Assembly (NCBI GenBank): GCA_046290225.1 | Contig: JBKAGE010000051.1 | Span: 12,636 to 76,635 of the forward strand | Direction: 5' to 3' | Length of the DNA stretch: 64,000 nt | Origin: Bradymonadia bacterium | GTDB lineage: Bacteria > Myxococcota_A > Bradymonadia > UBA7976 > UBA1532 | Shown here: in pieces, positions 3,683-19,215 of the stretch | Numbering within the stretch: position 1 is the stretch's first letter | How the letters are laid out: each line of letters begins with the position of its first letter | Position numbers and translations under genes: made by a program | Notes under the pieces: model-generated | Database searches by the model: none | What the model was told of the DNA's origin: nothing | Seen by the model: the letters and a program-made list of their open reading frames with translations, nothing else

Positions 3683-3703
3683 GGTGGCCTACCCCCCTGA
3701 GCA

Positions 3704-3864
3704 AGAGGTCCTAACAAAACAGCGGACCGAGTCAGGGACGTGAGGCGCGAGTGAGGCAGTTGAAAGAACCGCAGGCGATGCCAGAGCATCGTCGAGGACG
3801 GTTTCGGCTGCCTCGCGAAGTGCATCGCGTTCCTGGCGACGGGAGCGGTTATGTTAGGACCTCT
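3704..3864 (+). repeat. Rod-like hairpin / MITE-like element, copy 1, with perfect 13-bp terminal inverted repeats
   Basis: AGAGGTCCTAACA (3704) / TGTTAGGACCTCT (3852-3864). Inner arms pair using G.T, e.g. GAGGCAGTTGAAA / TTTCGGCTGCCTC. Apical CCGCAG-GCGATGC-caga-GCATCGT-CGAGGA. Confidence 0.8.
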
Positions 3865-4223
3865 AAGTCCGTATGCGTAATGCTGATGCGTGTTCGGGAT
3901 CCAACATCACGACACGGTGAACGCTCTGACCACGTGTTCGGGCCGAGTGGGTCGTTGTTGAGATGCCGAAGGGTGACCGCGCCGGGTTGCCCCTCGAATC
4001 AGAGGGGGAGCAGCTGCGGTGAATGCTGAGGCGGGAGTGTAGCGGCGGTCGAGTCGAGATGCCAACGAAGCCCACCTCATGGTGGAGGGCGTAGCAGGTT
4101 CGACGACCATCATGTCCGGTGCGGTTTCACATCATCGAAAAGATTCTGTCGACCACGCTGTAAGGCCCCAGTGACGCGCCATTGAAGAGCGCAAAGTACG
4201 TTCAGTCACGAAAGGCCCAGTAC

Positions 4224-4916
4224 ATGAAGCATACGCAATTGCTCCGCACTCTGATCGCATCACTCACCATGACCTGTGCGGTGACTGCATGTGGAGACAG
4301 CTCGAACGACTCCAGTGAGGTGGAGGGTCAAGGGGGCGCTGCTGCATCTGATGGCGCCGGCGGAGCCGTCGGTGGCCTCGCCGGCAGCTCTGACGAGGAT
4401 GGGGGTGGTGAAGCGGCGAGTCTCGAAGGTCTATATCGAGTGACGTCGCACACGGTGGCGGAAGGTGACTGTGAGGCACCTCAGCCTGTCACTGAATACT
4501 CCTCGCTCCTCTATGCCGTGAAGGGGCCGTTCCTCTTCGCGTCGAGCAGGACGATACCGGGTGAGTCGTTCAAGGAGGTGGAGTCGTGCGCATCGGCTGA
4601 GTCGTGCCCGCTGCCGGACGAAGCAGGGCTGCCCCCCGCGGTGGTGCGTTTCTTCGATCCGCAAGGGGAGGCGTGGGTGACCGAGTCCGTTGGCACGTTC
4701 TCTGAAAACTATGGAGAAGCGTGCTCCATATTGATGGTCACGTCGGTTTTGACGCCGACGGAGTCCGGGCTTCGCCTGACCAAGCGGGTCCTGTCGGCCG
4801 AGCTTGATCAGGTGAGCGAGGCCGAGTGTGAAGCCCTCGCTGAAGATCCGCCTTTCGAGATGCTCGAGTGTGACTACGACGAGGAGGTCATTGCCGAGCG
4901 CTTCGTCGCGGAGTGA
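4224..4916 (+). CDS. Hypothetical lipoprotein
   Basis: Lipobox-like VTAC, Gly/Ser-rich linker, Cys pairs. Confidence 0.7.
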   Translation: MKHTQLLRTLIASLTMTCAVTACGDSSNDSSEVEGQGGAAASDGAGGAVGGLAGSSDEDGGGEAASLEGLYRVTSHTVAEGDCEAPQPVTEYSSLLYAVKGPFLFASSRTIPGESFKEVESCASAESCPLPDEAGLPPAVVRFFDPQGEAWVTESVGTFSENYGEACSILMVTSVLTPTESGLRLTKRVLSAELDQVSEAECEALAEDPPFEMLECDYDEEVIAERFVAE

Positions 4917-5033
4917 GTGCGGCCAGGGCACGATGAGTCGGTCACATCGCGTTCAAGCCTGGTTTGATGTTCAGGCCTGTAAGAACCATGCCGCCCATGG
5001 GTCAGGCAGATCGTACATCGACGAGGAGACACG

Positions 5034-5732
5034 ATGAAGCTCAGCCTGATCATACTCATCTCTCTCATCTACTCGGGGTGCCTGACTGCCTGTGAGAGCG
5101 ACCCCGACGTCATGCCTGCTGACGAGGCAGCCGACGCCAGCCCTATGGGCGGTACACCCGCCACAGGTGGAGCAGGTGACGCCACCGAAGGGCCGCCAGA
5201 CGGTGACGTGCTCACCGAGCCGGGATCTCGCCTCTCGGCGCCCGAAGTGCATCGCCCCGAAGCGGCCGCGTGTGATCGAGAGCGCCCTGAAGATCCCTTC
5301 GACGCTTCTGGGCTCGAGGGCGACCAGCCTGGAGTCATGTGCCTGAGCCATGCAGACTGTGATGCAGGGGTGAATGGTCGCTGCGTGCACACGCGCTTCG
5401 GCACTGAGTGTACCTATGATGATTGCTTCACCGACAGTGATTGCGCCGACGACGAGGTGTGTACGTGCGGCGGTACACCTGGGCTACCCCACGGCAACAA
5501 CGTCTGCCTACAAGCATGGTGCAGGCTCGACTCCGACTGCGGAGCGGGCCGCTACTGCTCACCGAACGTATACGGATGTGAGCTGGTGGGCTGGGTGTGT
5601 CATACCCCCCAGGACACATGCTCTACTCAGAACGACTGCGAAGACACGGAGAGCCCGGAGGGTTCATTCTGTGGCTACTCAAACGGCGACTCGCGGTGGA
5701 TGTGCATCAGCGCGTCCACCTGTGCCGGGTGA
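5034..5732 (+). CDS. Cysteine-rich lipoprotein
   Basis: Lipobox LTAC; repeated CxxDxDC-type motifs. Confidence 0.75.
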   Translation: MKLSLIILISLIYSGCLTACESDPDVMPADEAADASPMGGTPATGGAGDATEGPPDGDVLTEPGSRLSAPEVHRPEAAACDRERPEDPFDASGLEGDQPGVMCLSHADCDAGVNGRCVHTRFGTECTYDDCFTDSDCADDEVCTCGGTPGLPHGNNVCLQAWCRLDSDCGAGRYCSPNVYGCELVGWVCHTPQDTCSTQNDCEDTESPEGSFCGYSNGDSRWMCISASTCAG

Positions 5733-5742
5733 GCGAGCGGGG

Positions 5743-6576
5743 CTACCGCCCGTTGCAGTTGATGATGAGCCTGAAGCTCGAGCACGCGGTGCTGATGTCC
5801 GCGGCGGCTTGATAGGGTCGCGGCGTACCGCAGTGCTCGAAGCGATCATCCCACGCGTCGCCCGTGGGCAGATCGAGGAACCCGCCGCCGTACGACAACC
5901 AGACATCGACGGGATAGTCCACGCTGTGGTTGTTGTAGGTGAGACTCAGGCGCTGGCCACGGGGCACATCGAAGCTCTCCGGCACCACGCGCATGTTGCA
6001 GAAGTTGTCGACGAAGATGTCCACCTGACCTTCGGCGACACTGGGCACACAAACGCCTACATCAGTGAGGATGAAGTCTTCGACACACGTGCCTTGTGGT
6101 ACGCAGCGGCCGTCTCCGCCATCGTGAGTGCCGAGGCAGTCGGCGGTGACGCCGTCATCACACATTTCATCGCCTTCGACGACGCCGTCACCACACTCGA
6201 CCAACGGCTCGGCATCAGGCACCTCGGCGTCGGGCTGCTCTGCGTCAGGCGAGTCTGCATCGGGGGCGTCGGCGTCAGGCAGGTCCATGTCGGCTGAGAG
6301 CGTGGCGTCGGTGGCTACATCCGAGTCAGCCATCAGATCGGGCAACTCGGCGTCAGCTGAGCGTGCATCAGCGCTCGGGGTGTCGGCATCGACCACCACA
6401 CCACCATCAGCATCACCTCCGCCTTGGCCTGGTGTCTGTGCATCCATCTCTGTGGGGATGCCTCCCGTGGACATGTCGATGGGCGACACTGCCCTCCGGC
6501 CGACGTTGTCCTCACAGGCCACACAGAGCAGGGCGCACATCGAGCATCGAATCAGGGGCCATCGAATCTCGTACAT
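5743..6576 (-). CDS. Lipoprotein with acidic DA-repeat linker, myxococcal Cys-rich repeat and possible cupredoxin-like C-terminal domain
   Basis: CVAC lipobox; CGDGVVEGDEMCDDG; VVPESFDVPRGQRLSLTYNNHS resembles the start of a cupredoxin fold. Confidence 0.65.
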   Translation of the reverse strand: MYEIRWPLIRCSMCALLCVACEDNVGRRAVSPIDMSTGGIPTEMDAQTPGQGGGDADGGVVVDADTPSADARSADAELPDLMADSDVATDATLSADMDLPDADAPDADSPDAEQPDAEVPDAEPLVECGDGVVEGDEMCDDGVTADCLGTHDGGDGRCVPQGTCVEDFILTDVGVCVPSVAEGQVDIFVDNFCNMRVVPESFDVPRGQRLSLTYNNHSVDYPVDVWLSYGGGFLDLPTGDAWDDRFEHCGTPRPYQAAADISTACSSFRLIINCNGR

Positions 6577-6668
6577 GGGCTGGCCTTGGCAGAAATGAGT
6601 GATAGTTTTCGGCGAGCATCGTACACATCATCGACGCGCAGGCATCCCCCTTACACAGGAGCACCGCC

Positions 6669-7367
6669 ATGCATCGAGACGAAACCTCCAAGGGATTGCG
6701 GCGCCGCGACGCCCTTGCCGGCCTCGCCACCCTCGCCGTGGGCACCCCAGCGCTGGCCCCGGCGCTGGCCTCAGCGAAGCCCCTCACCACCACCCCTGCT
6801 GTCTCCGGCGAGCGACCGAGCGATGTGCACCCGCTCCTTGTGGGGCAGAAAATTCCCGATGTGATGGCCCTCGACCTCGACGGCAAGGCTGTGAGCCTGC
6901 GGGCCCTCGCCGCAGAGCGGCACACCATTTTCGTGTTCTTCCGAGGAGGGTGGTGCCCGTACTGCACACGGCAGATGAGTCAGCTCAAGTCCATCGAGGC
7001 GCCACTCAAGCAGGCGGGGTGGCAGATCGTGGGCATCACCGCGGAGCCCCTGGAGCGTTTCCAGACGCAAGCGAGCAAGCTCGACTTGCCATACCGGCTC
7101 CTCGCCGACGATCAGTTCAAGGTCTCCACAGCCTTCGGGCTCACCTACAAGGTCAAGCCCCAGGACATCGGCGGACCACCAGGCATCGAATATTGGCGGC
7201 AGCTCTACAAAGTGGGCCCCGAGGTCGACCCGGTGCTGCCCGTGCCAGCAGTCTTTGCCGTGCACCCCAAAGGGCTGGTGCTGCACCAGTATGTCAACGT
7301 GGACTACACCGTGCGCCTGAGCGGCGAGGTGCTGCTCACCGTGGCCAAGGTATACGGACCTGCATGA
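6669..7367 (+). CDS. Tat-exported AhpC/TSA (peroxiredoxin-like) redoxin
   Basis: Twin-arginine signal LRRRDAL; FFRGGWCPYC; LPVPAVF. Confidence 0.85.
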   Translation: MHRDETSKGLRRRDALAGLATLAVGTPALAPALASAKPLTTTPAVSGERPSDVHPLLVGQKIPDVMALDLDGKAVSLRALAAERHTIFVFFRGGWCPYCTRQMSQLKSIEAPLKQAGWQIVGITAEPLERFQTQASKLDLPYRLLADDQFKVSTAFGLTYKVKPQDIGGPPGIEYWRQLYKVGPEVDPVLPVPAVFAVHPKGLVLHQYVNVDYTVRLSGEVLLTVAKVYGPA

Positions 7368-8086
7368 TGCGGAAGTTGTTGTGCGCGTTGATGCTGGTGT
7401 CGTCGTCTGCTTTTGCTCAAGAGGCCGCCACAGGTGAAAACTCTTCGGCGTCCGAGCCTGATGAGATCACGCCTTCGGCGCCTGCCATTGAGCCGCGGCC
7501 GATCGACACGAACGCCGTGGCACCCACCACCGAGCCGGAGCCCTTCGACGAGGTCGTGCCCCGCATGTTCGGGGAAGATCGCGCCGAGGTGATCCTCACC
7601 GAGTCGGTGGTGCGCCCTGATCGGTGGTGGCTGCAGGGCGGGGCTGCCGTGGCTATCTACGATGCGCGCCGCGAGGTGGCCCTGGTGCGCTGGAGCCCCG
7701 GCGTGCTCGGCGGCTACCGATGGACCCATGTGGGGGTCTTCGGCATGCTCGAGCTCGACCAGACCTTCGACTTCACCCTGGAGACCGAGCGCCTCGATGT
7801 GGCCAACATCGGGGTGGGCATCGAGACTCTGGGGTTCTTGGGTCACGTGCGCAGCAGCTTCGCCGTCGGGGCCAGCGTGCTGCTCTCCGACACCGCCATC
7901 GACGAGGCCGGTGAGGTGGGCTGGTTCATCGATATGCGCCCAGGGGGTTTGCGGTGGGCCCTCGGTGAGCAGACCCTGCTCGAGCTGACGCCCATCGCTT
8001 TCGATGTCATCGTGCCGGTCATCGAGGGGTTGCCCCTCATCGTGCTCTCGTACACCACCGTGCTCACCGTGGAGTTCAATCTATGA
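7364..8086 (+). CDS. Secreted / probable outer-membrane beta-barrel protein
   Basis: ATG 7364 overlaps the upstream stop; signal peptide MMRKLLCALMLVSSSAFA; amphipathic beta-strands ending VEFNL. Confidence 0.65.
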   Translation: MMRKLLCALMLVSSSAFAQEAATGENSSASEPDEITPSAPAIEPRPIDTNAVAPTTEPEPFDEVVPRMFGEDRAEVILTESVVRPDRWWLQGGAAVAIYDARREVALVRWSPGVLGGYRWTHVGVFGMLELDQTFDFTLETERLDVANIGVGIETLGFLGHVRSSFAVGASVLLSDTAIDEAGEVGWFIDMRPGGLRWALGEQTLLELTPIAFDVIVPVIEGLPLIVLSYTTVLTVEFNL

Positions 8087-9213
8087 GCGTACGGACTGGA
8101 AGGTGGATGGCGGCTGTGTGCGCGCTGGCTGTGTGGGCGAGCGCGGGAGCGGCGTGGGGTTTTCAGATTCTCACGCCGGCGAGCGAGCCATGCCACGAGC
8201 GGCTGATGCTCGGCGCCCTCGATCTCGCCTCGGCGCCGTTCTCTGCAGAAGACGACACCTCGCTGGCGCCTCTGCTCGACACGATGGTGGCCGAAGTGGA
8301 GCGTCACGGGTTCCCCAACGACAAAGCCACACGGGGGTTCGTCCGGGATGTGGCGGAGCTCTACGGCTTCGAACATCTCACTGGGGCTCGGCGCTATGTG
8401 GTGGCCTCGTTCATCATCGGCGTGCGGGCACCTGATACCGATGGCTTTGCGGTCGTCCAGCTCAACGAGGTGCGCACCACGCACATCGATGACGACAAAC
8501 AGGGTGTGCACTCTTTGAGGCGGTCGTTCGATGACGGCCCTGAGGGGAACCTCGAGGCCATCGTCAACACCCAGGAAGAGCTCAAGACCAGGTTTGAAGA
8601 GATGTCGGCGTTGTGGCGTGCCGATGATCCGTTCATCAAGGCGCGGTGGACCTTCCCGTTCTACGGAGAGGCAGAGGTCTGGGTGTATGGCCCCGCCATG
8701 CGCCTCGGAGAGATGGCCCACACCACACAGGACGCCTTCACGCACACACTGCGAGATGCAGATCTGCAGATCGTCACCGTGCTCAACTTCGTCGATCCCG
8801 TGCTCGCCCGGGACAAAGAGGGCCGCGACGGGCTGCCTCACTCCGATCGACTCGACGAGTGTGATGTCCCTGGTGATGACTTCGATGTGGTGCGCGTCAC
8901 CGCGGCTCGCCTCGCCACCGTCGACCTGCTCAACGAAGCGTTCTTGGCCTTGGAGGCTGCCCACAGTCAGGGCGGCCCTGTAGATGGCGCGGCGCTCGAT
9001 CCGGCCTTGGGGCGTATCTATCGGTACCGCCCGGGGTGCGAAGCCAGCAACGCCTACTGTGACACCACCTGGCTCGGCCCTGCGCGAGAGGGCTTCACCG
9101 AGCCGATCCGTCTCTGGTTCTGCAGCGCCCGAGCAGCGACGCCGTTGCCGATGTCGATGTGGATCCTCGTGTTGTCGTGCTGTGCCCTTTACCTGCGCAG
9201 ACAGAGACGATGA
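8083..9213 (+). CDS. Secreted protein with MYXO-CTERM-like tail; possible Zn-dependent phospholipase C/P1 nuclease-like fold
   Basis: Signal peptide; CHE and GEMAHTTQDAFTH (HxxxD) motifs; C-terminus Cys + hydrophobic stretch + RRQRR. Confidence 0.6.
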   Translation: MSVRTGRWMAAVCALAVWASAGAAWGFQILTPASEPCHERLMLGALDLASAPFSAEDDTSLAPLLDTMVAEVERHGFPNDKATRGFVRDVAELYGFEHLTGARRYVVASFIIGVRAPDTDGFAVVQLNEVRTTHIDDDKQGVHSLRRSFDDGPEGNLEAIVNTQEELKTRFEEMSALWRADDPFIKARWTFPFYGEAEVWVYGPAMRLGEMAHTTQDAFTHTLRDADLQIVTVLNFVDPVLARDKEGRDGLPHSDRLDECDVPGDDFDVVRVTAARLATVDLLNEAFLALEAAHSQGGPVDGAALDPALGRIYRYRPGCEASNAYCDTTWLGPAREGFTEPIRLWFCSARAATPLPMSMWILVLSCCALYLRRQRR

Positions 9214-10121
9214 AGTGCACACTCGTGCTGATGCTGCTGGTGGTCTTCGGCGGGCCATCCTCCGCGCAACGGATGGTCGAGGGTCCCGCCATACTGGATT
9301 ACAGCTACTACCCAGCGGTGGTTTCTGAGCAACCTGGCGATGACCAGCCTCGAAGCCACAGGCACCTGCAAGAGATCTTCGCGGCTGTGGGCTTGCCGGT
9401 GGTGCACAAGAGCTCGAAGACTCTGATCTTCCCGGCGCTGCAATACTCTGTGCTCTTGCCAGAAGACACTGGGAACACACGGGAGTTGGACGCTCTGCAC
9501 AACCCCATGTTGCAGGTGCTCGTGGTGCATGAACTCTCGGCGTCGTGGCAGGGCATGCTCATCGCTGGCGGCGGGCTGGCCTCTGATCTCGGTGGCAAAG
9601 TGACCGCTGACGACTGGATGTACCGTGTCAGCGCTTTGGCGAGTTATCAGTTCAATCCCGACTTCCGCCTCGGCGCCGGGGTGGACTATGACCGTCGCAC
9701 CGGCGAGTTGAGACCTCTGCCCCTCGTGGCGCTCGACTGGCACTTCTCGGAGACACTGCGCCTGAGCGGCGTGGTCCCTGCTCGGGTGATGTTCGCGTGG
9801 AGGGCGGCGCCCTCGCTCACCATGGCCCTCGCCGGCAGCCTCACAGGGAACCGTTACCACATAAGCGAAGAGCGCGTGGGGGTAGAAGACGCCGAGCTTG
9901 CTTACTCCATGGCGCGGGTGGGCCCGACTGTCGTGTGGCACATCCATCCGATGCTGCACTTCAGGGCACAGGCAGGCGCTACGATCCTGCGCCGATACGA
10001 GGTCTTCATCGGCGACGAGCGGCGCGGCGACGGCAGTCTCGACAACGGCCCGTTCTTCGGGGTGAGGCTCAGGGTGGGCCCGAGTGGCTGGCGCTCGGAC
10101 GCCCCCGAGCCCATGTTTTGA
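9210..10121 (+). CDS. Outer-membrane beta-barrel protein (DUF6268-like)
   Basis: ATG overlaps the upstream stop; signal peptide; GLASDL, PLPLVALDW, aromatic amphipathic strands. Confidence 0.6.
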   Translation: MKCTLVLMLLVVFGGPSSAQRMVEGPAILDYSYYPAVVSEQPGDDQPRSHRHLQEIFAAVGLPVVHKSSKTLIFPALQYSVLLPEDTGNTRELDALHNPMLQVLVVHELSASWQGMLIAGGGLASDLGGKVTADDWMYRVSALASYQFNPDFRLGAGVDYDRRTGELRPLPLVALDWHFSETLRLSGVVPARVMFAWRAAPSLTMALAGSLTGNRYHISEERVGVEDAELAYSMARVGPTVVWHIHPMLHFRAQAGATILRRYEVFIGDERRGDGSLDNGPFFGVRLRVGPSGWRSDAPEPMF

Positions 10122-10180
10122 TTGTCAGACCTCTATAAAAACGCTATCCCACAACGCATTACGATGTGTGGAGGTGTGAT

Positions 10181-10921
10181 GTGAGGCACATACTGAGCCT
10201 CTTGGCTCTCGTGGTCTGCATGACCACGAGCGCGCTCGCTGCAGACCATTTCGACGGCCCACAGACCAGTGATGATCCGGTCGGTGACATCGCCGACTTC
10301 TATGTGTTCCCTGTCGAAGACGGCAAAGGGGGCACGCGGCTGGTCCTCATGCTCAACACCTTCCCTCGGGCAGGCAAAGAGGCGTGGTTCTCCGATGCCA
10401 TCACCTATGGATTTCGGCTGAGGCCCAGCTGGCTCGAGAAGACCGACATCGGGGTGGCCACGAAGGTGAGCGACCGGGAGTTCCGGCTCGCATGCAACTT
10501 CGACATCGACACCGCGGACACCGAGAAGCTGGCGATGCTCGCCACGTGCACGCTGAGCGAAGGTGATCGGCTGGTCGCAGTGAGCACCGTGCCTGTTGAT
10601 GCGCTCGGCGGTGGCGAGGCGCCCTCGTTCAAGGTCTTCGCCGGTCTACGTGCCGATCCGTTCTTCACTGATGCCATCCGCATCCGTTTGCCCCGACCCC
10701 GCCATGACAGCCTGAGCCGTCTCATCTCTACGGGGAACAGCATGCGTCCGGCGTACTCCGCCGTGGGCGTGAATGCTGGTGGGCCCCGCTCCACCCGTCG
10801 CGAGGTGCCCAACGTGCTCAGCATCGTGGTGGATCTCGACGTCAAGGCCCTGCTCGGTGACGCCGGCCCCACCTTCGCCGTCGTGGCCGAGACCCGCCGT
10901 CGTGAAAGGGGAGTTCAGTGA
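10181..10921 (+). CDS. DUF4331-family protein, N-terminal half
   Basis: GTG after GGAGG; signal peptide followed by ADHFDGP, DIADFYVF, VFAGLRADPFF, NVLSIVV. Confidence 0.75.
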   Translation: MRHILSLLALVVCMTTSALAADHFDGPQTSDDPVGDIADFYVFPVEDGKGGTRLVLMLNTFPRAGKEAWFSDAITYGFRLRPSWLEKTDIGVATKVSDREFRLACNFDIDTADTEKLAMLATCTLSEGDRLVAVSTVPVDALGGGEAPSFKVFAGLRADPFFTDAIRIRLPRPRHDSLSRLISTGNSMRPAYSAVGVNAGGPRSTRREVPNVLSIVVDLDVKALLGDAGPTFAVVAETRRRERGVQ

Positions 10922-11718
10922 AAGCTGTGCGTTTCATGGTGTGTGCCCTGGCCCTCTGGGGCTGCGGTGAGTCCTCCTCTACAGACGGCGCTCAGGGTCT
11001 TGTGCCTCAGAGCCCCGAGTCGGAGACACCTCCTGATGGCAAGGCTGACGGGGTGCCAGACGAGACACCGGACGACTTCGCGCCGTTGCCCTCGACGCAG
11101 ATCGATCGCATGGGCCACGTAGAGGTGGGCCCGCTGATTCTGAAAGAGCCCGACATCGCCGATCGTTGGAATCAGGCAGAGCCCTTCGCCCTCGATCTTT
11201 CGGAGACCGACGCAAAAGAGTTCGAGGAGGCCCTGCGCTGGGGCCTGATCCGGTACGACCACTACGACTCGTACCCATTGAGCGTCTTCGATCTGCGCCT
11301 CGATTTGCTGAAGGTGCTCGGCGAGCAGCGCGATCAGGAGATCCCCGATCCGGAGGTGCTCGACTGGTTCGACGATCTCGAGCAGCCTCACCCCCTGACC
11401 GAGGTCTACATGACCGACGCGTTGTTCGTAGACGTGTCGAAGCCTTGTCCTGCAGATGGTGGCTATCTGGAGCCAGAGCTGGCCACCCTGGTGGGTCAGC
11501 CCTACGAAACCTGCGGCGGCCGGCACCCGAACGAAGACGTGATCGATGTCTTCGCGACGGTGCTCATCAATGGCATCTGGGAGAGAGAGACCGAGGATCG
11601 GGGGGATGATCCCTATCCGCATCGGGGAGATACGGTCACCGAGCCTTATGCGCCGGCGAAGGCTGAGTTCCCATATCTCGCGGAACCCTATGATGGCTGG
11701 GAAGACGGCCTGTTCTAG
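10918..11718 (+). CDS. DUF4331-family C-terminal-half lipoprotein
   Basis: Lipobox LWGC; GKADG; QIDRMG, GGRHPNEDVID, FPYLAEP. Confidence 0.7.
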   Translation: MKAVRFMVCALALWGCGESSSTDGAQGLVPQSPESETPPDGKADGVPDETPDDFAPLPSTQIDRMGHVEVGPLILKEPDIADRWNQAEPFALDLSETDAKEFEEALRWGLIRYDHYDSYPLSVFDLRLDLLKVLGEQRDQEIPDPEVLDWFDDLEQPHPLTEVYMTDALFVDVSKPCPADGGYLEPELATLVGQPYETCGGRHPNEDVIDVFATVLINGIWERETEDRGDDPYPHRGDTVTEPYAPAKAEFPYLAEPYDGWEDGLF

Positions 11719-11739
11719 CTCCGCCGCTACGGCGGCGTC

Positions 11740-13494
11740 TCAGCGGTTGTGGTAGATGGTGCCGGCGAACCAGGTGTCGGCGGGGATCCAGCCGTCACCG
11801 TTGCCACCCCAGCCCTTGTTGATGTGGAACTCGTAGCGGGTCTCCACATCGTTCCAGCACCAGAAGAAGCAGCGGCGGACCGTGCGGGTCTGAATCCGGT
11901 ACTTCCACGCCATCGGGTAGTGGGCCGAGGCGACGAAGCCCGTGCCGATGATGCTCGGGGTCTTGTTGTGGATGATGTGACCGGCGGCGATGCGGCGGAT
12001 GCGATCCTCAGAGATGGTGAGCGCGTTGTAATCAGTGCTCAGCGTGGTCCCCGTACGGCCGGTCAAGTAGCGCCAGGCCTTGTGCATGTCCCAGGGGTTC
12101 GTCGCCGCCTGGTTGTTGATCACACAGTACGTGCCCATATGACGGGCGAGCTCCGAGTGCATCTGGCGCACGCCGTACTCGTTGTTTTCAGGCGCCACGG
12201 CGTCTGCACCGCGACCACCGTTCTTACGGTAGAGCCCCCAGCGGCCGGACCATTTGTAGTGTCCGTCAGCGGCCTTCTTGTCACCCCAACCAAAGAGCAT
12301 GCCCCAGGCCACTGAGCCACAGCCGATGTAACAGTTGGCCGCCATGTGTTGATTATAGTGGCGCTGATCGTCAGATCGGCCCGCGGCCCACTCTGCAGTC
12401 GTGCGCCACTGATTGATGCCCATCTCGGCGAGATCCTCTTCGGTCACGGGCCGGGTGAAGAGCAGCTGGCGCGTCGAGCCCTGGTTGTGGTGGATCATGA
12501 TCTCGATGTCGAGCTCTTCCTCGGTGAGCTCCACCAGGGTGATGTCGAGGCGACGACCACCAGGGCCCTCGACCTCTTCGACCTGCACCACATCGAGGCC
12601 CGGGCCGTCGATCTCATACTCCGCGCCGTCGACCAGGGGCACCACGAAGACCTCACCCGCCTTCACACCCTCGCCGTAGTCTGCCACCAGATCTTCTACC
12701 TCCCACTCGTGGGCGGCGTTGTCCCGCAGAGCCTCAAGAGGTGCAGCGAACATCTCGGCGTACTCCGCCTTGAGATCCTCGAACCGCTCGAAGGGCTCGA
12801 TGACCAGGCTCTGAGGATCTTCGCCCTCTGAGGTCAACTCGAAGCGCACACCATCCTCGGCGTCAGGATCAGAGGCCACCGGCTCGGCGCGGTGATGGAC
12901 AAGGTTGGCTTCAGAGTCATGGTCGAGGCCGTACTGGCGCTGGGGCAGGTTGCCCAGCTGAGCCACGACCTCACCCTCTACGCCCTCGGCGGCATAGGAG
13001 AGTACGTCGAGCTTGTAGAGTCGGGTGATGGCACCCTCGGCGCGCGCTGTCAGCTGGCGGCCCATGGCTTCGCCCTCGGCGCTCCAGTGGGCCACGGGAT
13101 GATCGTGGCGCCCGGTGGAGACGAGCACGAAGCCTGAGGGCTCACCCTCACGGAGCACCTCGAACTCGTAGTAGGCCGGCCCTTCGACATCGGGGCGGAA
13201 GTAGACGAAGGCCTTTTCACCGAGGCGCGCCCCCTCAAACTCGCCGAGTTGCCGGCGCTGCTCCACGAGGGTGGCTGCCCGCGCCCTCAGCCCATAAGGC
13301 ACCGACTCTGCTGCGATGACCGTCTCGTCGGCCCGCAGCACATTGCGCACGGCGTGCACCTCGGCGAGCTCACCCTCACCTTCGATCTCACCACAGCCTG
13401 TGAGGGTGGCGGTGAAGCTCGAAGACAGGGCGACGGCGAGGGTGACGTGCTTGAGCCAGCGGCGGGCGGACAGACGGGTACGGGTGCTCCACAT
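11740..13494 (-). CDS. Lipoprotein with papain-like (C10/streptopain-like) cysteine peptidase domain
   Basis: Lipobox LTGC; prodomain-like YYEFE..GFVLVSTG; catalytic-like GCGSVAW, AHY, HINKGWGG. Confidence 0.7.
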   Translation of the reverse strand: MWSTRTRLSARRWLKHVTLAVALSSSFTATLTGCGEIEGEGELAEVHAVRNVLRADETVIAAESVPYGLRARAATLVEQRRQLGEFEGARLGEKAFVYFRPDVEGPAYYEFEVLREGEPSGFVLVSTGRHDHPVAHWSAEGEAMGRQLTARAEGAITRLYKLDVLSYAAEGVEGEVVAQLGNLPQRQYGLDHDSEANLVHHRAEPVASDPDAEDGVRFELTSEGEDPQSLVIEPFERFEDLKAEYAEMFAAPLEALRDNAAHEWEVEDLVADYGEGVKAGEVFVVPLVDGAEYEIDGPGLDVVQVEEVEGPGGRRLDITLVELTEEELDIEIMIHHNQGSTRQLLFTRPVTEEDLAEMGINQWRTTAEWAAGRSDDQRHYNQHMAANCYIGCGSVAWGMLFGWGDKKAADGHYKWSGRWGLYRKNGGRGADAVAPENNEYGVRQMHSELARHMGTYCVINNQAATNPWDMHKAWRYLTGRTGTTLSTDYNALTISEDRIRRIAAGHIIHNKTPSIIGTGFVASAHYPMAWKYRIQTRTVRRCFFWCWNDVETRYEFHINKGWGGNGDGWIPADTWFAGTIYHNR

Positions 13495-13634
13495 AGGGGC
13501 CTCTCTTTCATCGAAGGTGAAGGGGTCGCCGGTCTCACCCGGCGTTCACTTCTCCCTACGCGAGAGCCCGCGCTGTCTTTTTTCGATGACGTAAAAAAAT
13601 CTCAACGAGGTGCTGAGAGGCCTCTCGTCACCCC

Positions 13635-14426
13635 TCAGGGGTGTGCCTTCTCGAGCAGCGCAATGCCGTCGATGAACGGCCGCAAACCGATGTAGCCGCT
13701 CAGTCTCCTGGTGGTGGCCAGGGTCTCGAGGACTGCGTGCCCGCCAGCGAGCCCGAAGTGAGCCTGTGGGAGTGATTGTGTAAAGGCGGTTTTACGAATG
13801 AGCGGGCTGAGCAGAGCCCAGGCATCTGATGCCTCGGTGAAGTTCGGGACGGGGAACCCATTCAACTGTGCGCTACAGGGCGTCTGCAGCACCACCCGAC
13901 CCCTGAGTGCCATTGGCTCGTCCATCGGGCGCCCAAGATACTGTCTGATCGTCAGCGCGCGCCCATGAATCGTGGTGTGAGCCACCACACAAAACAACTC
14001 GATGAACGGTGCATGGTTGGACAAGAAGTCGTCCATTGCTGATCGGGTGTCTTCGGGGTGCTCTACGTCGAGATCTTCGACGCTGATCGAAGGCGAGCTT
14101 GCCTCTGGCAGTTCTTTGGCGATCCGTTTCGAGAGCCAGAGAATGTGTGGCTCCACATCAAAGGGTTGAGCAAGCCAGTCTTCGCGTTTGGGTCTCCAAT
14201 TCTTCGACCGAAACAGTCCCCGCATGCCGAGGTAGAGCCCTGCGATGCCTGTGATCAAGGCCAGTATGGCCGCGACTGAGAAGACCGTCTTCATCCACAT
14301 GCTCATTTTGAACTCGAAGATCACGAGCACGGCGACGGGTAACGCGCTGACTGCGGTGATGGTGAGGTTGATGCGAGCGCTCCTGAGGAGCTGCGCCCGT
14401 GTCATGGTCTTGACGTCTGCAGGCAT
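13635..14426 (-). CDS. Hypothetical membrane protein with two N-terminal TM helices
   Basis: ORF 13635..14534; probable start 14426 because the upstream extension is repeat DNA; two hydrophobic segments. Confidence 0.55.
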   Translation of the reverse strand: MPADVKTMTRAQLLRSARINLTITAVSALPVAVLVIFEFKMSMWMKTVFSVAAILALITGIAGLYLGMRGLFRSKNWRPKREDWLAQPFDVEPHILWLSKRIAKELPEASSPSISVEDLDVEHPEDTRSAMDDFLSNHAPFIELFCVVAHTTIHGRALTIRQYLGRPMDEPMALRGRVVLQTPCSAQLNGFPVPNFTEASDAWALLSPLIRKTAFTQSLPQAHFGLAGGHAVLETLATTRRLSGYIGLRPFIDGIALLEKAHP

Positions 14427-14468
14427 CTGATATGGCCAATCACTCAAAAAGAGAGAGACCTTATACAA

Positions 14469-14505
14469 AACACCTCTCCCTACCCAACACCTCTCCTTAC
14501 CCAAC
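14469..14505. repeat. 17-bp tandem duplication AACACCTCTCC(C/T)TACCC x2
   Basis: Copies at 14469 and 14486 differ by one base. Confidence 0.75.
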
Positions 14506-14536
14506 CCCTTCAAAGCCGTAATCCACGTATGCACAT

Positions 14537-14706
14537 GCCCCGCGGAGGCGCGGAGGTGGTGGCAGTCGTCGTGAGGTCGGTGAGTTCTCGTTCAGATGCG
14601 GGCTTTCACCCGCAGGGGTAGCAGCGCTACCCCGAGGACGGAAAGGTCGTAGCTGGGCGGGAAATCGCCGGCGTCACGGCGGCTGGCGCCGCCGCAGCGC
14701 CGGAGC
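14537..14706 (+). repeat. Rod-like hairpin element, copy 2
   Basis: Arms pair with G.T: CAGTCGTCGTGA / TCACGGCGGCTG and TTCTCGTTCAG / CTGGGCGGGAA. Apical CCGCAG-GGGTAGC-agc-GCTACCC-CGAGGA (14610-14638). Confidence 0.8.
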
Positions 14707-14713
14707 TGACTGA

Positions 14714-17008
14714 TCAACGCGCCCGGAAGACCTGGCTTTCCCAGCCGAAGGAGGCGCCACCACCGGTGAAGATGGCGAGGCGGACCTGTACGGGGAGGAT
14801 GTACGACGCGGCGATGCCGTTGAGGCTGTTGCTGTTGATGCTGCTCTGACCGGTGACGATGGAGTTCGCCGCCGTCGTGTGCCAGAGGTAGTGCGCCGAT
14901 GCGGAGCCGCCCTGAGGCCACGAGCCGCTGCTGCCGCCGCACTGCCCGTCCTCACCGGGCGTCAGCAGGAACCACGTGCCGGCCTCGTTCTGGATGTAGA
15001 CCTCGTGGCCGCCGCCGCTGCCGTTCTGGAAGTTGCCGTTGTCGTCGTCCGAGGTGGTGGTCACCATGCGGGTGTCCACGCTCAGCTCGGTGAGCTGGGT
15101 GCGCAGAGCGCTGATCTCGGCGGCGCTGTACGTGGACCCGTTGGCGGGGTTTTCGTACGTCAGGGTCCGGTAGAGATCGTGGCTGCCGTTGGGGGAGCTG
15201 TCTGCAGAGACAGAGCCTTCGCTGATCCAGTCGTAGTGGGTTGCCGAGTCGTCGGCGCATTTCCGCCACGGGTTGCTGCTGTGATACTCGGCGACGATGA
15301 TGTCCTGACTCTCCGTTGTGGAGAGGCGCACCCAGCCGCCGCCGTCGGTGGTCATGTCGCAGTCGACGATGAAGGGATCGACGCCGCCGAGGCCATCAGG
15401 GTCGATGGTGTAGAGGCCGTCGCCGATATTGTCCACGTAGGCGTAAGGCTCTTCAGGGGGGTTGCGGTAGTCGGCGCAGCTGGCGGCGTAGGTGTTGTCC
15501 GCCCACTCCCGAGCGCCCGTGTCGATGTCGATGATGAGCCCGGTCTCGCAGTCCCCAGGCACGTTGGCTTGAGGCGCGAGATCAGCAGCAACGTTGACAC
15601 ACTCACCGACAGTGACGTTGCCGCAGACGCGGGTCTCGCAGGTCTCCACACCGAGCTCGACGCCGGCGCCGATGGTGCTGCCCTCGCCGATGGTGCTGTC
15701 GGGGAACACGATGACGTTGTCCTCGAAGGTCACGTCGTTGCCCACGTCGGCGCCGTCACGGATGAGCACGCCGGCGCCCACAGTGACGTCATTGCCATAG
15801 GTGCTGCGAGGCCACAGGCGGCTGTTGTCACCCATGTTGAAGCCGGTGCCGATGGTGACCTGCTCGTCGATGATGCAGTCGAGCCCCACAGTGGCGCCGT
15901 CACCAACGTTGCTGCGGAACAGGACCACGCTGTTGGCGCCAATGGTGCTGTTCGCCCCCACGGAGGCCCCGTCGTACACGGTCACGTTGCCCATCAGCTG
16001 GGTGTTGGCACCGATGTTCGAGAAGAGGCTGATGGTGGATCCGGTGTGCATGCGCGCGCCATCACCGACGATGCTCTGGTTGCCGGCGAAGGTGTTGTCG
16101 TCGAGGGTGACGTTGTTGCCCAGAGTACCGCGGACCTCGACGTTGGCGCCGAGGGTGACCATGTTGCCGGCGTTGGCTCCGGAGGCCAGCTGAGAGCCGG
16201 CGCCCATCATGAAGTCGTCGCCGATGGTGTTGTAGTTGTGCAGCGTGCTGTCGTTGCCGAGGGTGGCGCGGTGGCCAATGAGGCTGTTGGGTCCGATGAT
16301 CACCCGCTCGCCGGCGATGAAGTCGTCACCGGCGGTGGTGTTGCTGGCGATCTGAGTGCCGGTGCCGAGGGCGGCGCGATCCCCGATGATGGTGTTCGAG
16401 CCGATGTTGGTGTTGTCGGGTACGGTGCCGTCAGCCCCGATGCGCGCCAGGGCGCCGAGATCGACGTTGTTGCCGATGGCGGTGTCGTCGCCGATGACGA
16501 CGTTGTTGCCCACGGTGCTGTTGGCGCCGATGGTGACGCCACTGCCGAGCTGTACGCGGATGCCCACGGAGGTGCCTGCGCCGATGCCGACGTTGTCGCC
16601 GATGACGGCGGCGTTGCCCACAGAGGCACCGAGGCTCACGGTGCTGCCGGCGCCGATGGCGGCGGAGCTGCCCACGTTGCCATTGACCACGCTGCCCATG
16701 CCGATACGGGCGTTTGATCCCACGACGCCGGTGGCACCGATGATGGCGCCGAGCTCGACCTGAGCGCTGGCATCGATGGTGGCATCAGGGCTCACACAGT
16801 CATCGCCGAAGCCGTCGCCGTTGTTGTCCACCTGGTCGACGTTGGACACGGTGGGGCAGTTGTCGACATCATCACAGATGGTGTCGCCGTCTTCGTCTGC
16901 ACACTGGCCCTGTGCCCAAACGCTGGTGCTTACACACATCGTGGCCATGAACACACTTCGGCTCATCCATCGCTTCATCGGATTACCCATCGCTACGTTT
17001 GCCTCCAT
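14714..17008 (-). CDS. Secreted TSP3 + long left-handed beta-helix (hexapeptide) + fibrinogen-like head protein
   Basis: Signal peptide ending VWA; DEDGDTICDDVDNCP (TSP3); about 400 aa of [IVL]Gxxxx hexapeptides; YTIDPDG...CDMTTDGGGW. True start may be 16990 or 16978. Confidence 0.85.
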   Translation of the reverse strand: MEANVAMGNPMKRWMSRSVFMATMCVSTSVWAQGQCADEDGDTICDDVDNCPTVSNVDQVDNNGDGFGDDCVSPDATIDASAQVELGAIIGATGVVGSNARIGMGSVVNGNVGSSAAIGAGSTVSLGASVGNAAVIGDNVGIGAGTSVGIRVQLGSGVTIGANSTVGNNVVIGDDTAIGNNVDLGALARIGADGTVPDNTNIGSNTIIGDRAALGTGTQIASNTTAGDDFIAGERVIIGPNSLIGHRATLGNDSTLHNYNTIGDDFMMGAGSQLASGANAGNMVTLGANVEVRGTLGNNVTLDDNTFAGNQSIVGDGARMHTGSTISLFSNIGANTQLMGNVTVYDGASVGANSTIGANSVVLFRSNVGDGATVGLDCIIDEQVTIGTGFNMGDNSRLWPRSTYGNDVTVGAGVLIRDGADVGNDVTFEDNVIVFPDSTIGEGSTIGAGVELGVETCETRVCGNVTVGECVNVAADLAPQANVPGDCETGLIIDIDTGAREWADNTYAASCADYRNPPEEPYAYVDNIGDGLYTIDPDGLGGVDPFIVDCDMTTDGGGWVRLSTTESQDIIVAEYHSSNPWRKCADDSATHYDWISEGSVSADSSPNGSHDLYRTLTYENPANGSTYSAAEISALRTQLTELSVDTRMVTTTSDDDNGNFQNGSGGGHEVYIQNEAGTWFLLTPGEDGQCGGSSGSWPQGGSASAHYLWHTTAANSIVTGQSSINSNSLNGIAASYILPVQVRLAIFTGGGASFGWESQVFRAR

Positions 17009-17068
17009 TAGGTCTGATGTGTGTGAAGGTAGCTTATTTTGAGTGGGGGGAGAAGATGGGATTTTTTA

Positions 17069-17112
17069 AGAGAGTTTCGGGCACGGGCACGGGCACGGGC
17101 ACGGGCACGAGT
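17069..17112 (+). repeat. (CGGGCA)5 array with conserved flanks; G-quadruplex-type motif
   Basis: AGAGAGTTT-(CGGGCA)5-CGAGT; near-identical copy at 40005-40049. Confidence 0.9.
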
Positions 17113-17126
17113 TTTACGGATGTGGG

Positions 17127-17389
17127 CAGTGCAGCCTGAGGCTGCATGTCTTGGAGCGAGTGGAGGTTGGCGTAGCCGGCCGGAGGGAGCGGAAAGACAC
17201 CCGGAGGGCTGTCCACTGTTTGGCCTGACAGTGCAGCCTGAGGCTGCATGTCTTGGAGCGAGTGGAGGTTGGCGTAGCCGGCCGGAGGGAGCGGAAAGAC
17301 ACCCGGAGGGCTGTCCACTGTTTGGCCTGACAGTGCAGCCTGAGGCTGCATGTCTTGGAGCGAGTGGAGGGCGGCGCAGCCGGCTCTAC
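17127..17389. repeat. 102-bp tandem repeat (~2.5 copies) with REP-like palindrome
   Basis: Units start at 17127, 17229 and 17331; each contains TGCAGCCT-G-AGGCTGCA; the minus strand of the array end reads GTAGAGCCGGC. Confidence 0.9.
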
Positions 17390-17481
17390 TGAATGTTGTG
17401 TATCGCTCCAATGGGCTATCACTCAAACACCCAAAGTCGCCATCCAGAAAACAGAAACCCACATCAGGCCGAGCCCGCGGA

Positions 17482-17638
17482 GAGGCGGAGGCCCCGGTCG
17501 TGGTTGACTGCGGCGTGAGGCGTGGTGGCTGGGTGGTGATTCACCCGCAGGCGATGCTGGAAGCATCGTCGAGGAGGGAAGCGCCGGCCAGACGCCGCGC
17601 ACCGCGCCGCAGGCGACCGCGAACGGGGCCGGAGCCTC
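17482..17638 (+). repeat. Rod-like hairpin element, copy 3
   Basis: GGCCCCG / CGGGGCC, TCGTGGTTG / CGACCGCGA (G.T), CTGCGGCG / CGCCGCAG. Apical CCGCAG-GCGATGC-tggaa-GCATCGT-CGAGGA (17545-17575). Confidence 0.8.
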
Positions 17639-17646
17639 GGAGCCCA

Positions 17647-19215
17647 TCAATGCCGGAAGTGGCGTGCTCCCGTGAACACCATGGCCAGGCCCAGGCGGTT
17701 TGCGGCCTCGATCACCGCCTCGTCGCGGATCGAGCCACCGGGCTGGATGATGCTCGTCACACCTGCCGCCGCTGCGGCCTCTACCCCATCAGGGAAGGGG
17801 AAGAATGCGTCAGAGGCCAGGGCTGCACCTTGCGCCTGCTCGCCAGCGCGCTCTGCCGCGTGGCGGACTGCGTCCACCCGGTTTGTCTGGCCGCCGCCGA
17901 TGCCCACCGAGGCCATCACTCCGCCGCCGAGGGGGCGGGCGATCAGGATCGCGTTCGATTTCACATGGCGGACCGATTGCCAGGCGAAGGCCAGTGTCGC
18001 GTACTCAGATGCTTCTGGGGCGCGCTCGGTGACCACCTTCCAGGCGGCGCGATCGCTCGGGCGGTGATCCGCCTCTTGTACAAGCATACCGCCGGGGATC
18101 GCGCGGAGGTCGAAGCCGTCGAGGGGGCTTGGGCGACGGCCTTCCAGAGGGCGCATTACGCGGCAGTTCTTCTTCTTGCGGGCCAGCATCGCCAGGGCGC
18201 CTTCTGTGAACGAAGGCGCTGCGATCACCTCGACGAAGAGCTTGCCCACCGCCTCGATGAAAGACTCGTCCACCGGACGGTTCACGGCCACGATGGAGCC
18301 GAAGGCCGACACTGGATCACTTGCCAGAGCGCCCTTGAAGGCTGAGACCGTGTCCGGGCCCGTCGCCACGCCACAAGGGCTGTTGTGCTTCACGATGGCC
18401 ACCGCCGGGCCCTCGAAGCCGAAGGGGATCGGCCAGGTCGCGGCCAGATCGAGGGCGTTGTTGTAGCTTAGGGCTTTCTCGCCCTGCACCATCTCGAAGT
18501 ACGGCGTGCTCCCCGCCGGTCGGTACACCGCGCCGTGTTGGTGGGGGTTCTCGCCGTAGCGCAGGGTCTGCACCTGCTCGAGGGCTACATTGATCACTGG
18601 GGGCAGGCGTTCAGTTGTGTCCTCGGCCACCGTCGAAGCCATCCAGGTAGAGATCGCCGCATCGTAGGCCGCCGTGTGGCGGAACGCCTTCAGGGCCATC
18701 TTGCGGCGGAAGGCCACCGAGCGGTCATCGTTGGCCTCGAGGCGCAGAGTCGACAGCGCTGCGTCGTAATCTGCTGGATCACACAACACCGTCACTGACT
18801 CGAGGTTCTTCGCCGCGGCGCGCAGCAGGGTCACCCCACCGATGTCGATCTGCTCGATGGCCTCTGCCTCCGTCACACCTTCTCGAGCGATGGTGTCCGT
18901 GAAGGGATAGAGGTTGCAGACCACGAGATCGATGGGGGCGAGCCCGTAGCGCTCGAGCTCACCGAGGTGCTCTGGCGTGCGGCGGGCCAGCAGGCCTCCG
19001 TGGACCGCTGGGTGCAGTGTCTTTACCCGGCCACCGAGCATTGGGGGAAAGCCTGTGAGATCATCCACCGAGATCACGTCGAAGCCGGCGGCGGCGAGGG
19101 CCTTCGCCGTGCCCCCTGAGGCGATCAGCTCGAAGCCCAGCGCGTGCAGGCCGGCACCCAGGGTCTCGATGTCGGTTTTGTCGTAGAGGCTCAGTAGAGC
19201 GCGGCGAGCGGTCAT
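17647..19215 (-). CDS. purH: Bifunctional AICAR transformylase / IMP cyclohydrolase
   Basis: Start MTARRALLSLYDK overlaps the purN stop; GGRVKTLHP, IDIGG, LRYGENPHQ, KHNSPCG, ASDAFFPF, RHFRH. Confidence 0.97.
   Translation of the reverse strand: MTARRALLSLYDKTDIETLGAGLHALGFELIASGGTAKALAAAGFDVISVDDLTGFPPMLGGRVKTLHPAVHGGLLARRTPEHLGELERYGLAPIDLVVCNLYPFTDTIAREGVTEAEAIEQIDIGGVTLLRAAAKNLESVTVLCDPADYDAALSTLRLEANDDRSVAFRRKMALKAFRHTAAYDAAISTWMASTVAEDTTERLPPVINVALEQVQTLRYGENPHQHGAVYRPAGSTPYFEMVQGEKALSYNNALDLAATWPIPFGFEGPAVAIVKHNSPCGVATGPDTVSAFKGALASDPVSAFGSIVAVNRPVDESFIEAVGKLFVEVIAAPSFTEGALAMLARKKKNCRVMRPLEGRRPSPLDGFDLRAIPGGMLVQEADHRPSDRAAWKVVTERAPEASEYATLAFAWQSVRHVKSNAILIARPLGGGVMASVGIGGGQTNRVDAVRHAAERAGEQAQGAALASDAFFPFPDGVEAAAAAGVTSIIQPGGSIRDEAVIEAANRLGLAMVFTGARHFRH

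Follow-up and report, generated by a model that had tools for sequence, protein, structure and literature searches.

Strand-specific rod repeats in a Bradymonadia genome: copies boxed between transposon ends and copies docked on stop codons

How gene-less palindromic repeats spread in bacteria without a partner enzyme of the REP-associated tyrosine transposase (RAYT) type is an open question. Three long hairpins, here termed rods, lie within a 64,000-nucleotide stretch of DNA from a Bradymonadia bacterium (GenBank assembly GCA_046290225.1, contig JBKAGE010000051.1, positions 12,636 to 76,635 of the forward strand; this whole stretch is the window, numbered from its first letter). Their nearest described relatives come from Geobacter metallireducens: Gmet_R1001-R1024, which Aklujkar et al. 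(2009; PMC2700814) termed "24 predicted short RNA elements". These are intergenic and about 112-116 nt long, compared with 159-167 nt for the rods described here, whose arms and ends appear to differ. The two groups have in common an apical stem, or central palindrome, with a flanking internal loop: four of the 24 (Gmet_R1003, R1010, R1015 and R1021) contain the exact reverse complement of CCGCAG-stem-CGAGGA, R1013 is one base off, and the rest carry a related GGA/GCA loop, as judged by eye, while element 2 of the window has a GTAGC-AGC-GCTAC centre. The available part of the Geobacter paper gives the central palindrome only, with no strand bias, docking rule or mechanism, and two later Geobacter and Pelobacter genome papers, as far as their accessible text goes, list multicopy sequences without a mechanism. 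No description of a strand bias or docking rule was found in the open-access full-text literature. A reading of the window from its letters only (the sequence-only reading) had supposed that similar apical motifs may exist in other bacteria, as the Geobacter elements now bear out. The same match reduces novelty. Against Rfam 15, nothing in the window reached gathering score, the elements had no match at E<=5, and ten external loci gave three weak matches, all below that score.

Two other known systems invite comparison. Like repetitive extragenic palindromic (REP) sequences and REPINs, as described by Di Nocera et al. (2013; PMC3733652), the rods are palindromic, intergenic, found near stop codons, free of target duplication and targeted by other elements; unlike them they measure 120-167 nt rather than 20-40 bp, carry no GTAG or CGTC tag, have no RAYT that could be found, and dock strictly antisense by one end. 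The deltaproteobacterial miniature transposable element with inverted repeats (MITE) Chunjie of Geobacter uraniireducens is 178-235 bp long, folds very stably, and is reported to carry terminal repeats of 21 bp and direct repeats of 9 bp (excerpts of PMC3184786, PMC10969869 and PMC6042816). Compared by description only, the ~180-bp Geobacteraceae copies discussed below fall within the Chunjie size range, and family A of the present genome differs by its TNA triplet. The family apex was already known (Geobacter, 2009), and the newly shown features are an empty site, a nested architecture within one genome, quantified and replicated docking, and two parasites of the rods. The rods are a new form of known non-autonomous repeats; their route of spread is unexplained and possibly new. 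The account developed here, in which all three hairpins belong to one dispersed, non-coding mobile repeat with a core that spread by RNA-templated copying at gene ends, is advanced tentatively, at somewhat less than an even chance of being right as a whole.

The rod and its folding strand

Each of the three elements folds as one long rod closing on CCGCAG-stem-CGAGGA, as had been seen by eye. The refined features are as follows.

3702..3704, + strand: left copy of the target triplet, CAA; a single triplet is retained at the empty site, where three letters fit either side of the joint
3705..3863, + strand: element 1, a family A MITE of 159 bp, with a BC-like rod core inside ~16-bp terminal inverted repeats (GAGGTCCTAACA...TGTTAGGACCTC); the folding strand is +
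3769..3798, + strand: apex of element 1, from the fold (CCGCAG, 7-bp stem, 4-nt loop, CGAGGA)
3864..3866, + strand: target triplet on the right-hand side, TAA, an imperfect match to CAA, from flank comparison
14511..14541, + strand: 5' leader of element 2, degenerate, unpaired and common to many BC copies in the BC alignment
14542..14706, + strand: element 2, a rod of family BC (GCGGAG...CGGAGC); 7 bases separate its 3' end from the stop of gene 14714-17008, on the - strand
14610..14638, + strand: apex of element 2, from the fold, with a GGGTAGC/GCTACCC stem and a 3-nt loop
17445..17476, + strand: 5' leader of element 3, approximate, its start placed by eye
17477..17643, + strand: element 3, a rod of family BC; 3 bases separate its 3' end from the stop of purH (on the - strand)
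17545..17575, + strand: apex of element 3, from the fold

These ends replace the first estimates of 3704-3864, 14537-14706 and 17482-17638. The arms, once taken to be largely different, are in fact related: elements 2 and 3 can be aligned as a single family, with which element 1 has two motifs in common, the GCGGA..GGAGC base and a GTGAG/ATCGC arm.

The genome (an 8.58-Mb, 64% GC, 99%-complete assembly) contains at least 106 full copies in two forms built on one shared folded core, comprising 25 copies of family A (with apex) and 81 of family BC. The strict form of the motif, 7-bp stem included, is present 65 times, compared with 0 in the reversed genome and 0, 0 and 0 in three block shuffles, and a relaxed scan yields 66 rods after removal of one chance hit (on contig C77). 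The BC set derives from an nhmmer profile search, with a profile built without row C7_m_15960; of 122 hits, 81 full copies were kept, and the other 41, which were incomplete, scored low or belonged to family A, were dropped. Like BC, family A starts with GCGGA and ends with GGAGC once its terminal repeats are set aside.

The plus strand of the three window copies folds better than the minus strand, confirming the earlier claim. With refined ends the RNA energies (+/-) are -102.7/-69.8 kcal/mol for element 1, -118.0/-72.3 for element 2 and -122.7/-88.7 for element 3, an advantage of 33-46 kcal/mol (14-23 as DNA) with the same order under both parameter sets. Against 200 shuffles, element 1 has z-scores of -11.9 (+) and -6.8 (-). 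Throughout the genome the better-folding strand is the same in 25/25 A and 81/81 BC copies (106/106), as RNA and as DNA, with a median strand difference of -35 kcal/mol under RNA and -17 under DNA parameters. The advantage also holds for every external copy whose ends are resolved (67/67) and, in Geobacteraceae, for 46/52 copies. Many arm mismatches are G.T on the folding strand, as first noticed: G.T outnumbers A.C at paired positions 144:8 in A and 730:19 in BC (874 vs 27 over the 106 copies). Unpaired rod positions are purine-rich.

Covariation was counted on FastTree trees with slid-partner controls; the A alignment held 22 of the 25 copies, three long ones having been dropped. Double changes on the same branch go from pair to pair in 27/30 cases in A and 175/196 in BC (202/226 in total), with 0-1 (A) and 2-16 (BC) in the controls. 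Copies, trees and fold comparisons together support the idea of a structured, strand-specific, covarying repeat family. The apical motif is present in all three elements, as had been stated, but it is not invariant: in BC, CCGCAG/CGAGGA accounts for 58/81 copies, the compensatory GCGCAG/CGAGCA for 10/81 and other variants for 7, with 6 unparsed. Apical loops mostly have three bases, at 53/57 among the short BC loops that were parsed and at 108/130 among external ones, where the pattern allowed 3-5. A kink-turn, which in its consensus has a 3-nt bulge beside tandem G.A pairs, was considered for the apex and rejected, the apex being a 3x2 GCA/GA loop with no extra bulge. Replication-strand bias was uninformative: the G-rich strand holds 13/22 A and 41/73 BC copies, and the skew measure failed to sort genes (559/1119).

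For G.T to exceed A.C in this way, one strand would have to be under selection, or to undergo deamination in a single-stranded state. Template switching between arms or exchange of modules between copies can inflate the covariation counts yet cannot yield this excess. The core probably exists as a free single strand during its spread. As to its nature, the larger RNA energy gap favours RNA, while the mostly 3-nt loops suit DNA equally or better.

Copies boxed between transposon ends

Family A copies begin with GAGGTCCTAACA and end with its complement. They are 159 bp long, non-coding and without an open reading frame (ORF), and variants with the same ends are either internally deleted (26-63 bp) or branched and longer (276-289 bp). 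The flanking triplet is perfectly duplicated in 15/25 copies and TNA on both sides in 16/25. Element 1 lies upstream of rtcB, with ORF 4182-4916 on the + strand as its other neighbour. In two of three public sequencing runs, from different studies, contigs join 3702 directly to 3865. Because the 162 bases skipped equal 159 + 3, element 1 is an insertion with a short duplication, a MITE. The proposal that the hairpins might be MITEs is thereby upheld for element 1, with its terminal repeats, triplet and empty site, and fails for elements 2 and 3, which have neither terminal repeats nor a duplication. That all three lie antisense to adjacent genes proves likewise to be a rule of BC (75/81) and not of family A, in which copies between co-oriented genes (n=17) number 9 sense and 8 antisense with no docking bias; element 1 itself also has a + strand neighbour.

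The ends of family A suggest an affinity with ISAzo13. An intact ISAzo13 element in a Geobacteraceae relative (locus L417; PF07592, E 1.4e-141) has TAA flanks, and family A resembles this type in the TNA triplet at both ends and in similar terminal sequence (a CTA-A/G-CAAAA core). The ends are similar, not identical, to those of L417 and L418, which come from another lineage, and the likeness carries no statistic; a mis-specified row (L336) was dropped from the comparison. Family A differs from an ordinary MITE with ISAzo13 ends in its interior, a conserved one-strand rod that recurs in end-less copies and in MITEs of other end types. An initial IS5/IS1031 label was replaced by ISAzo13-like after this comparison; the IS5/IS1031 group likewise uses 3-base targets, according to the accessible text of PMC2516522, and is still a candidate for these ends. 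A search of the genome for transposases returned one IS4 transposase, with different ends, and a DUF4096 search returned none. Among 401 genomes of the phylum, the family A end pattern gave single matches only, in three others. In L417 the stop codon of the ISAzo13 transposase lies a few bases inside the right end (L417:1453-1495). Speculatively, a core could have come to lie between transposon ends if a rod docked on this stop and an internal deletion ensued.

In relatives the same apex is surrounded by other types of end as well, those of TNA and TA type among them. The Geobacteraceae copies of ~180 bp with terminal repeats (L336, L344, L377) consist of a ~120-nt end-less core plus arms of ~30 bp. 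We infer from these nested sequences that the core is primary and was captured by transposon ends more than once. No autonomous insertion sequence (IS) with GTGTCC-type ends was present in 15 stretches of two Desulfobacterales genomes.

Docking of end-less copies on stop codons

Family BC has a different anatomy, comprising a degenerate leader of ~30-35 nt, a rod running from GCGGAG to CGGAGC, and a precise 3' end. It lacks terminal inverted repeats, and there is no target duplication (match length 4.42 observed vs 4.41 shuffled). Tandem duplications at the 3' side occur in 9/81 copies. The A-rich linkers in these were once considered non-templated additions, a view downgraded since the linkers recur and one duplication includes target bases. 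The features of the window that bear on docking, together with the neighbour of element 1, are these.

14714..17008, - strand: gene for a hexapeptide-repeat protein with a C-terminal GGGW fibrinogen-like domain (domain matches); element 2 docks on its stop
17647..19215, - strand: purH (domain matches); element 3 docks on its stop
11718..11737, - strand: BC-end remnant of 20 nt, overlooked in the sequence-only reading and facing the convergent gene 11740-13494; the first base of the remnant is also the last of the TAG stop that ends the + strand gene 10918-11718
2276..3682, - strand: RtcB-family gene, neighbour of element 1 (context), with profile matches below curated cut-offs

Beyond the BC 3' end a gene on the opposite strand is found in 75/81 copies, and in 53 the end lies within -2..12 nt of its stop, usually 0-8 bases away. 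Viewed from the genes (5929 called by a codon-score caller, approximate, at 85% coverage), a BC end lies within -1..12 nt of the stop in 82, compared with 0 at a control position inside genes. The same end also docks on 3 of 96 ARAGORN tRNA calls and on 4 U-tract terminators, the latter read by eye. Docking is repeated in four Geobacteraceae genomes, where an antisense stop follows just past the 3' arm in 42/52 copies vs a sense stop on the 5' side in 13/52. Of 27 orthologous cysT-cysW loci, 3 have a rod at the junction, 0-1 nt after the cysT stop, and where cysW follows (two of these three) its start region is retained on the far side; the three loci may represent a single event, and the cysT-cysW spacer is naturally short. 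In other Geobacteraceae (L389, L394-L396, L398, L403), unrelated palindromic or short-period repeats stand right after the same cysT stop.

Codon bias is strong in docked genes, at 0.33 for the 69 tested vs 0.20 for 1593 controls (p about 1e-14). Among them, as identified by eye, are several genes for ribosomal proteins and ATP synthase. Such bias is expected if RNA abundance or translation sets the target. It would also fit rods that are host-selected RNA signals at gene ends, acting as antisense read-through barriers or as 3'-end stabilisers in convergent pairs, with mobility incidental. The greater strand difference under RNA parameters noted above agrees with such a role, as does the term short RNA elements chosen by Aklujkar et al. 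in the available part of PMC2700814. We nevertheless regard this explanation as quite improbable, given that family A keeps its fold in any orientation and that presence is patchy, with the strict apex pattern in only 3 of 301 genomes of this phylum and a rod at only 3/27 cysT orthologues.

The junctions themselves bear on a second alternative. In the commonest BC junction (21/82; TA|G or TA|A) the first base of the element completes TAA or TAG, never TGA; TAA or TAG ends 41/69 docked genes vs 375/1593 controls, an excess due in part to the modal junction itself. All copies could have begun as MITEs of the DDE type targeting TA/TNA, of which BC lost its ends; TA/TNA sites cluster at stop codons in a GC-rich genome, so deletion plus selection would have left BC on the stops of highly expressed genes, with the one-strand fold inherited or kept by strand-biased mutation. 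Element 1 is indeed a MITE with an empty site, external copies have TNA- and TA-type ends, an antisense stop is also faced by 10/24 external copies with well-paired termini, and REP-like eroded MITEs are known, such as QMITE2 of Coxiella (excerpt of PMC10969869). The BC 3' end is, however, precise rather than eroded and lacks a duplication; the other 61 of 82 junctions have 0-12 extra bases, 25 of them after TGA; BC has an orientation bias (75:6) that family A does not; and copies with terminal repeats hold the end-less core nested within added arms. Descent from DDE-type MITEs is an unlikely competitor, at about one chance in four by our estimate.

The base adjoining the element is linked to element lineage (17/23 vs 6/27, p = 5e-4), which implies that part of the 0-8-nt spacer travels with the element. 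BC copies are enriched between convergent genes (33/63 vs about 22% expected). This enrichment, together with the strand-specific fold, the precise 3' end, the lack of duplication and the 3-nt loops, would suit a REPIN-like BC, in which an HUH enzyme (RAYT or the IS200/IS605 TnpA type) reads the folded apex in single-stranded DNA (ssDNA) and pastes the strand without duplication. GTAG REPs often provide stop codons, according to the part of PMC3733652 available. That other mobile elements target rods, as they do REPs, agrees as well. Yet neither PF01797 nor NF047646 has a match in this assembly, the apex lies within about 1.5 kb of 0/25 Y1_Tnp loci in five carrier genomes, the rods lack a GTAG or CGTC terminal tag, and an enzyme acting on DNA alone has no evident means of reading in-frame stops of highly expressed genes. 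The earlier suggestion of an HUH substrate is weakened by these results, the search for Y1_Tnp and RAYT having come up empty in a 99%-complete assembly, and we consider it rather improbable.

Several smaller observations concern docking sites. Four genes, on contigs C38, C75, C72 and C34 (gap -23), take their final codons and their stop from the BC end, gaining a short GSxAPAP-like tail. Mini-palindromes like the remnant at 11718-11737 dock on both stops of convergent pairs on contigs C1 and C34. Sequences similar to gene 14714-17008 break several contigs, which suggests that its hexapeptide-repeat/GGGW product belongs to a paralogue family. Just upstream of element 3, 17127-17432 holds a different repeat family (two identical 102-nt tandem copies and a third at 61%), and this flank has 187 BLAST hits in the genome.

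Route of spread, guest elements and distribution

In the route we propose, copying and insertion probably act on the folding strand. A rod RNA, cut back to a ragged 3' end lying a few bases beyond its helix, would be reverse-transcribed by an enzyme acting in trans, with synthesis beginning at a free 3' end where an actively translated gene terminates, in the manner of short interspersed nuclear elements (SINEs). In this way the 3' end of the folding strand would have become joined, in elements 2 and 3, to an opposite-strand gene at its stop codon. The GCA/GA apex may serve as a handle read by the copying enzyme. The end-less form would have come first, with transposon ends capturing the core several times, and element 1 would be the same core boxed between ISAzo13-like ends and likely moved by a cut-and-paste transposase with a 3-base duplication. 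The opposite polarity, in which the folding strand is a complementary DNA (cDNA) that jumps onto an mRNA end, would fit the same data. RNA-templated copying is preferred because the targets are translated, abundant transcripts and the ends of tRNAs and terminators, because the spacer base is linked to lineage, because there is no duplication, and because reverse transcriptases but no HUH enzymes are found in the assembly. The former comprise two retron-type genes and a multicopy group II intron.

A number of points weigh against this proposal. No enzyme is linked to the rods: of 131 proteins beside external copies one is a transposase and none a reverse transcriptase, and the retron non-coding region, examined by eye, lacks the rod motif. 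Three-base apical loops suit ssDNA at least as well as RNA. Compensatory changes can also come from arm-to-arm template switching or from module exchange between copies, and two paralogous genes have the same BC junction but carry unlike rod bodies. The 3' tandem duplications may reflect later slippage, since at least one (contig C6) takes in target bases. The modal TA|G and TA|A junction is the best argument for TA targeting, being what a TA-targeting DNA transposase plus selection predicts. No empty site was seen for elements 2 and 3 in the three public runs, where that of element 1 was found, and a paralogue search for BC empty sites gave no usable pair; without one, insertion at a stop is indistinguishable from later trimming towards it. 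No RNA run was among the public runs listed, which has no bearing on whether the rods are expressed. As to family A, no ISAzo13 transposase (PF07592) was found in this assembly, in which multicopy elements collapse, or in G005, G014, G411 and G413, and its one-strand fold persists, unexplained, although its movement appears to involve double-stranded DNA.

The retron genes raise the further idea that rods are retroposed copies of a resident retron's multicopy single-stranded DNA (msDNA), as proposed for repeats of Nannocystis exedens (titles cited in PMC6868368). A rod of ~160 nt and two retron reverse transcriptase genes would suit this idea, which was already disfavoured and which we hold to be very improbable, because the region upstream of the retron reverse transcriptase shows neither apex nor arms by eye and the retron contig carries 0/66 copies. 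The two genes are convergent (L240, L241; contig C79:177218-182477), and upstream of one of them lies a non-coding region bounded by long ACAAC/GTTGT inverted repeats.

The rods are themselves landing sites for other mobile elements. Thirty-three contig ends break at collapsed repeats tied to rods. Twelve are ends of a multicopy group II intron, on the gene-sense strand and at or near the boundary of rod and leader (for example C65, C62, C72, C5 and C9, loci L419-L423); RF00029 scores above the gathering threshold at 4/4 tested 3' ends, the middle of the intron being unassembled. The other 21 (L424 and 20 others) are ends of an IS-like element with 17-bp CTGATCGTCCTACACAT termini, which sits in the apical stem with an apparent 11-bp palindromic duplication; two of these 21 lack recognisable rod arms. 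The CTGATCGTCCTACACAT-ended element may, as a guess, be IS4-like. Neither it nor the intron interrupts the three window copies.

Attraction of group II introns, one-strand folding and an antisense position behind a stop codon are all reminiscent of attC sites, whose consensus cores are RYYYAAC/GTTRRRY and whose folded bottom strand would be recombined by an integron-type integrase. Element 1 carries TCCTAAC/GTTAGGA inside its terminal repeats, which differs from that consensus, and BC has no conserved AAC/GTT cores; the flanks are housekeeping genes in mixed orientation, with no cassette arrays. Despite the strand selectivity of attC (PMC8946536, in part) and the insertion of IIC introns at terminators and attC (PMC4424553, likewise in part), attC-like rods are highly improbable.

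The species-level genome collection yields at least 118 loci. Among the 80 named matches listed most are Desulfobacterota, and other carriers include Myxococcales, Gammaproteobacteria, Acidobacteriota, Planctomycetota, Selenomonas/Veillonellaceae and a bin named Pedobacter. Across phyla the arms are not alignable (mean column identity 36%, with one row, L130, mis-specified). The genes beside external copies have varied ordinary functions; the neighbour set of 131 proteins was drawn from 146, 15 having been dropped for size limit or as duplicates. Viral contigs gave 120 loose matches, of which 6 have an apical stem of at least 6 bp and 4 of those carry the family apex, by eye; a metagenome scan for the BC end gave 0 hits. 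A broader possibility, which we think doubtful, is that these are multi-phylum bacterial SINE-like or ssDNA replicons: a rod of 120-165 nt with a GA-rich apex, without ends or a gene of its own, whose translation-linked 3' end finds the stops of heavily translated genes, repeatedly captured by unrelated transposon ends and serving as a landing site for the group II intron and the IS.

In two distant lineages the rod family obeys a sharp, testable rule, by which a single end of a single strand lies 0-8 bases from the stop of a highly expressed gene. It also brings its own control in the form of the same core, which as an ordinary MITE moves without regard to docking. Cultured carriers exist in Geobacter metallireducens and Desulfosarcina alkanivorans. 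Should the rods spread through an RNA template in a way linked to translation termination, bacteria would have a counterpart to SINE retroposition, and DNA would be targeted to gene ends in a new manner; failing that, this is still a large uncatalogued repeat family reshaping gene ends.

Head-to-tail arrays of rods occur in one Wenzhouxiangellaceae genome (4 copies at 183 bp, L169:2501-3079) and one Desulfobacteraceae genome (3 copies at 161 bp, L188:2501-2851). At contig ends such as those of C8, C59, C72 and C82 there is a large family of GGGCAC hexamer tandem repeats; some start just after stop codons, and another collapsed mobile element is inserted into the family.

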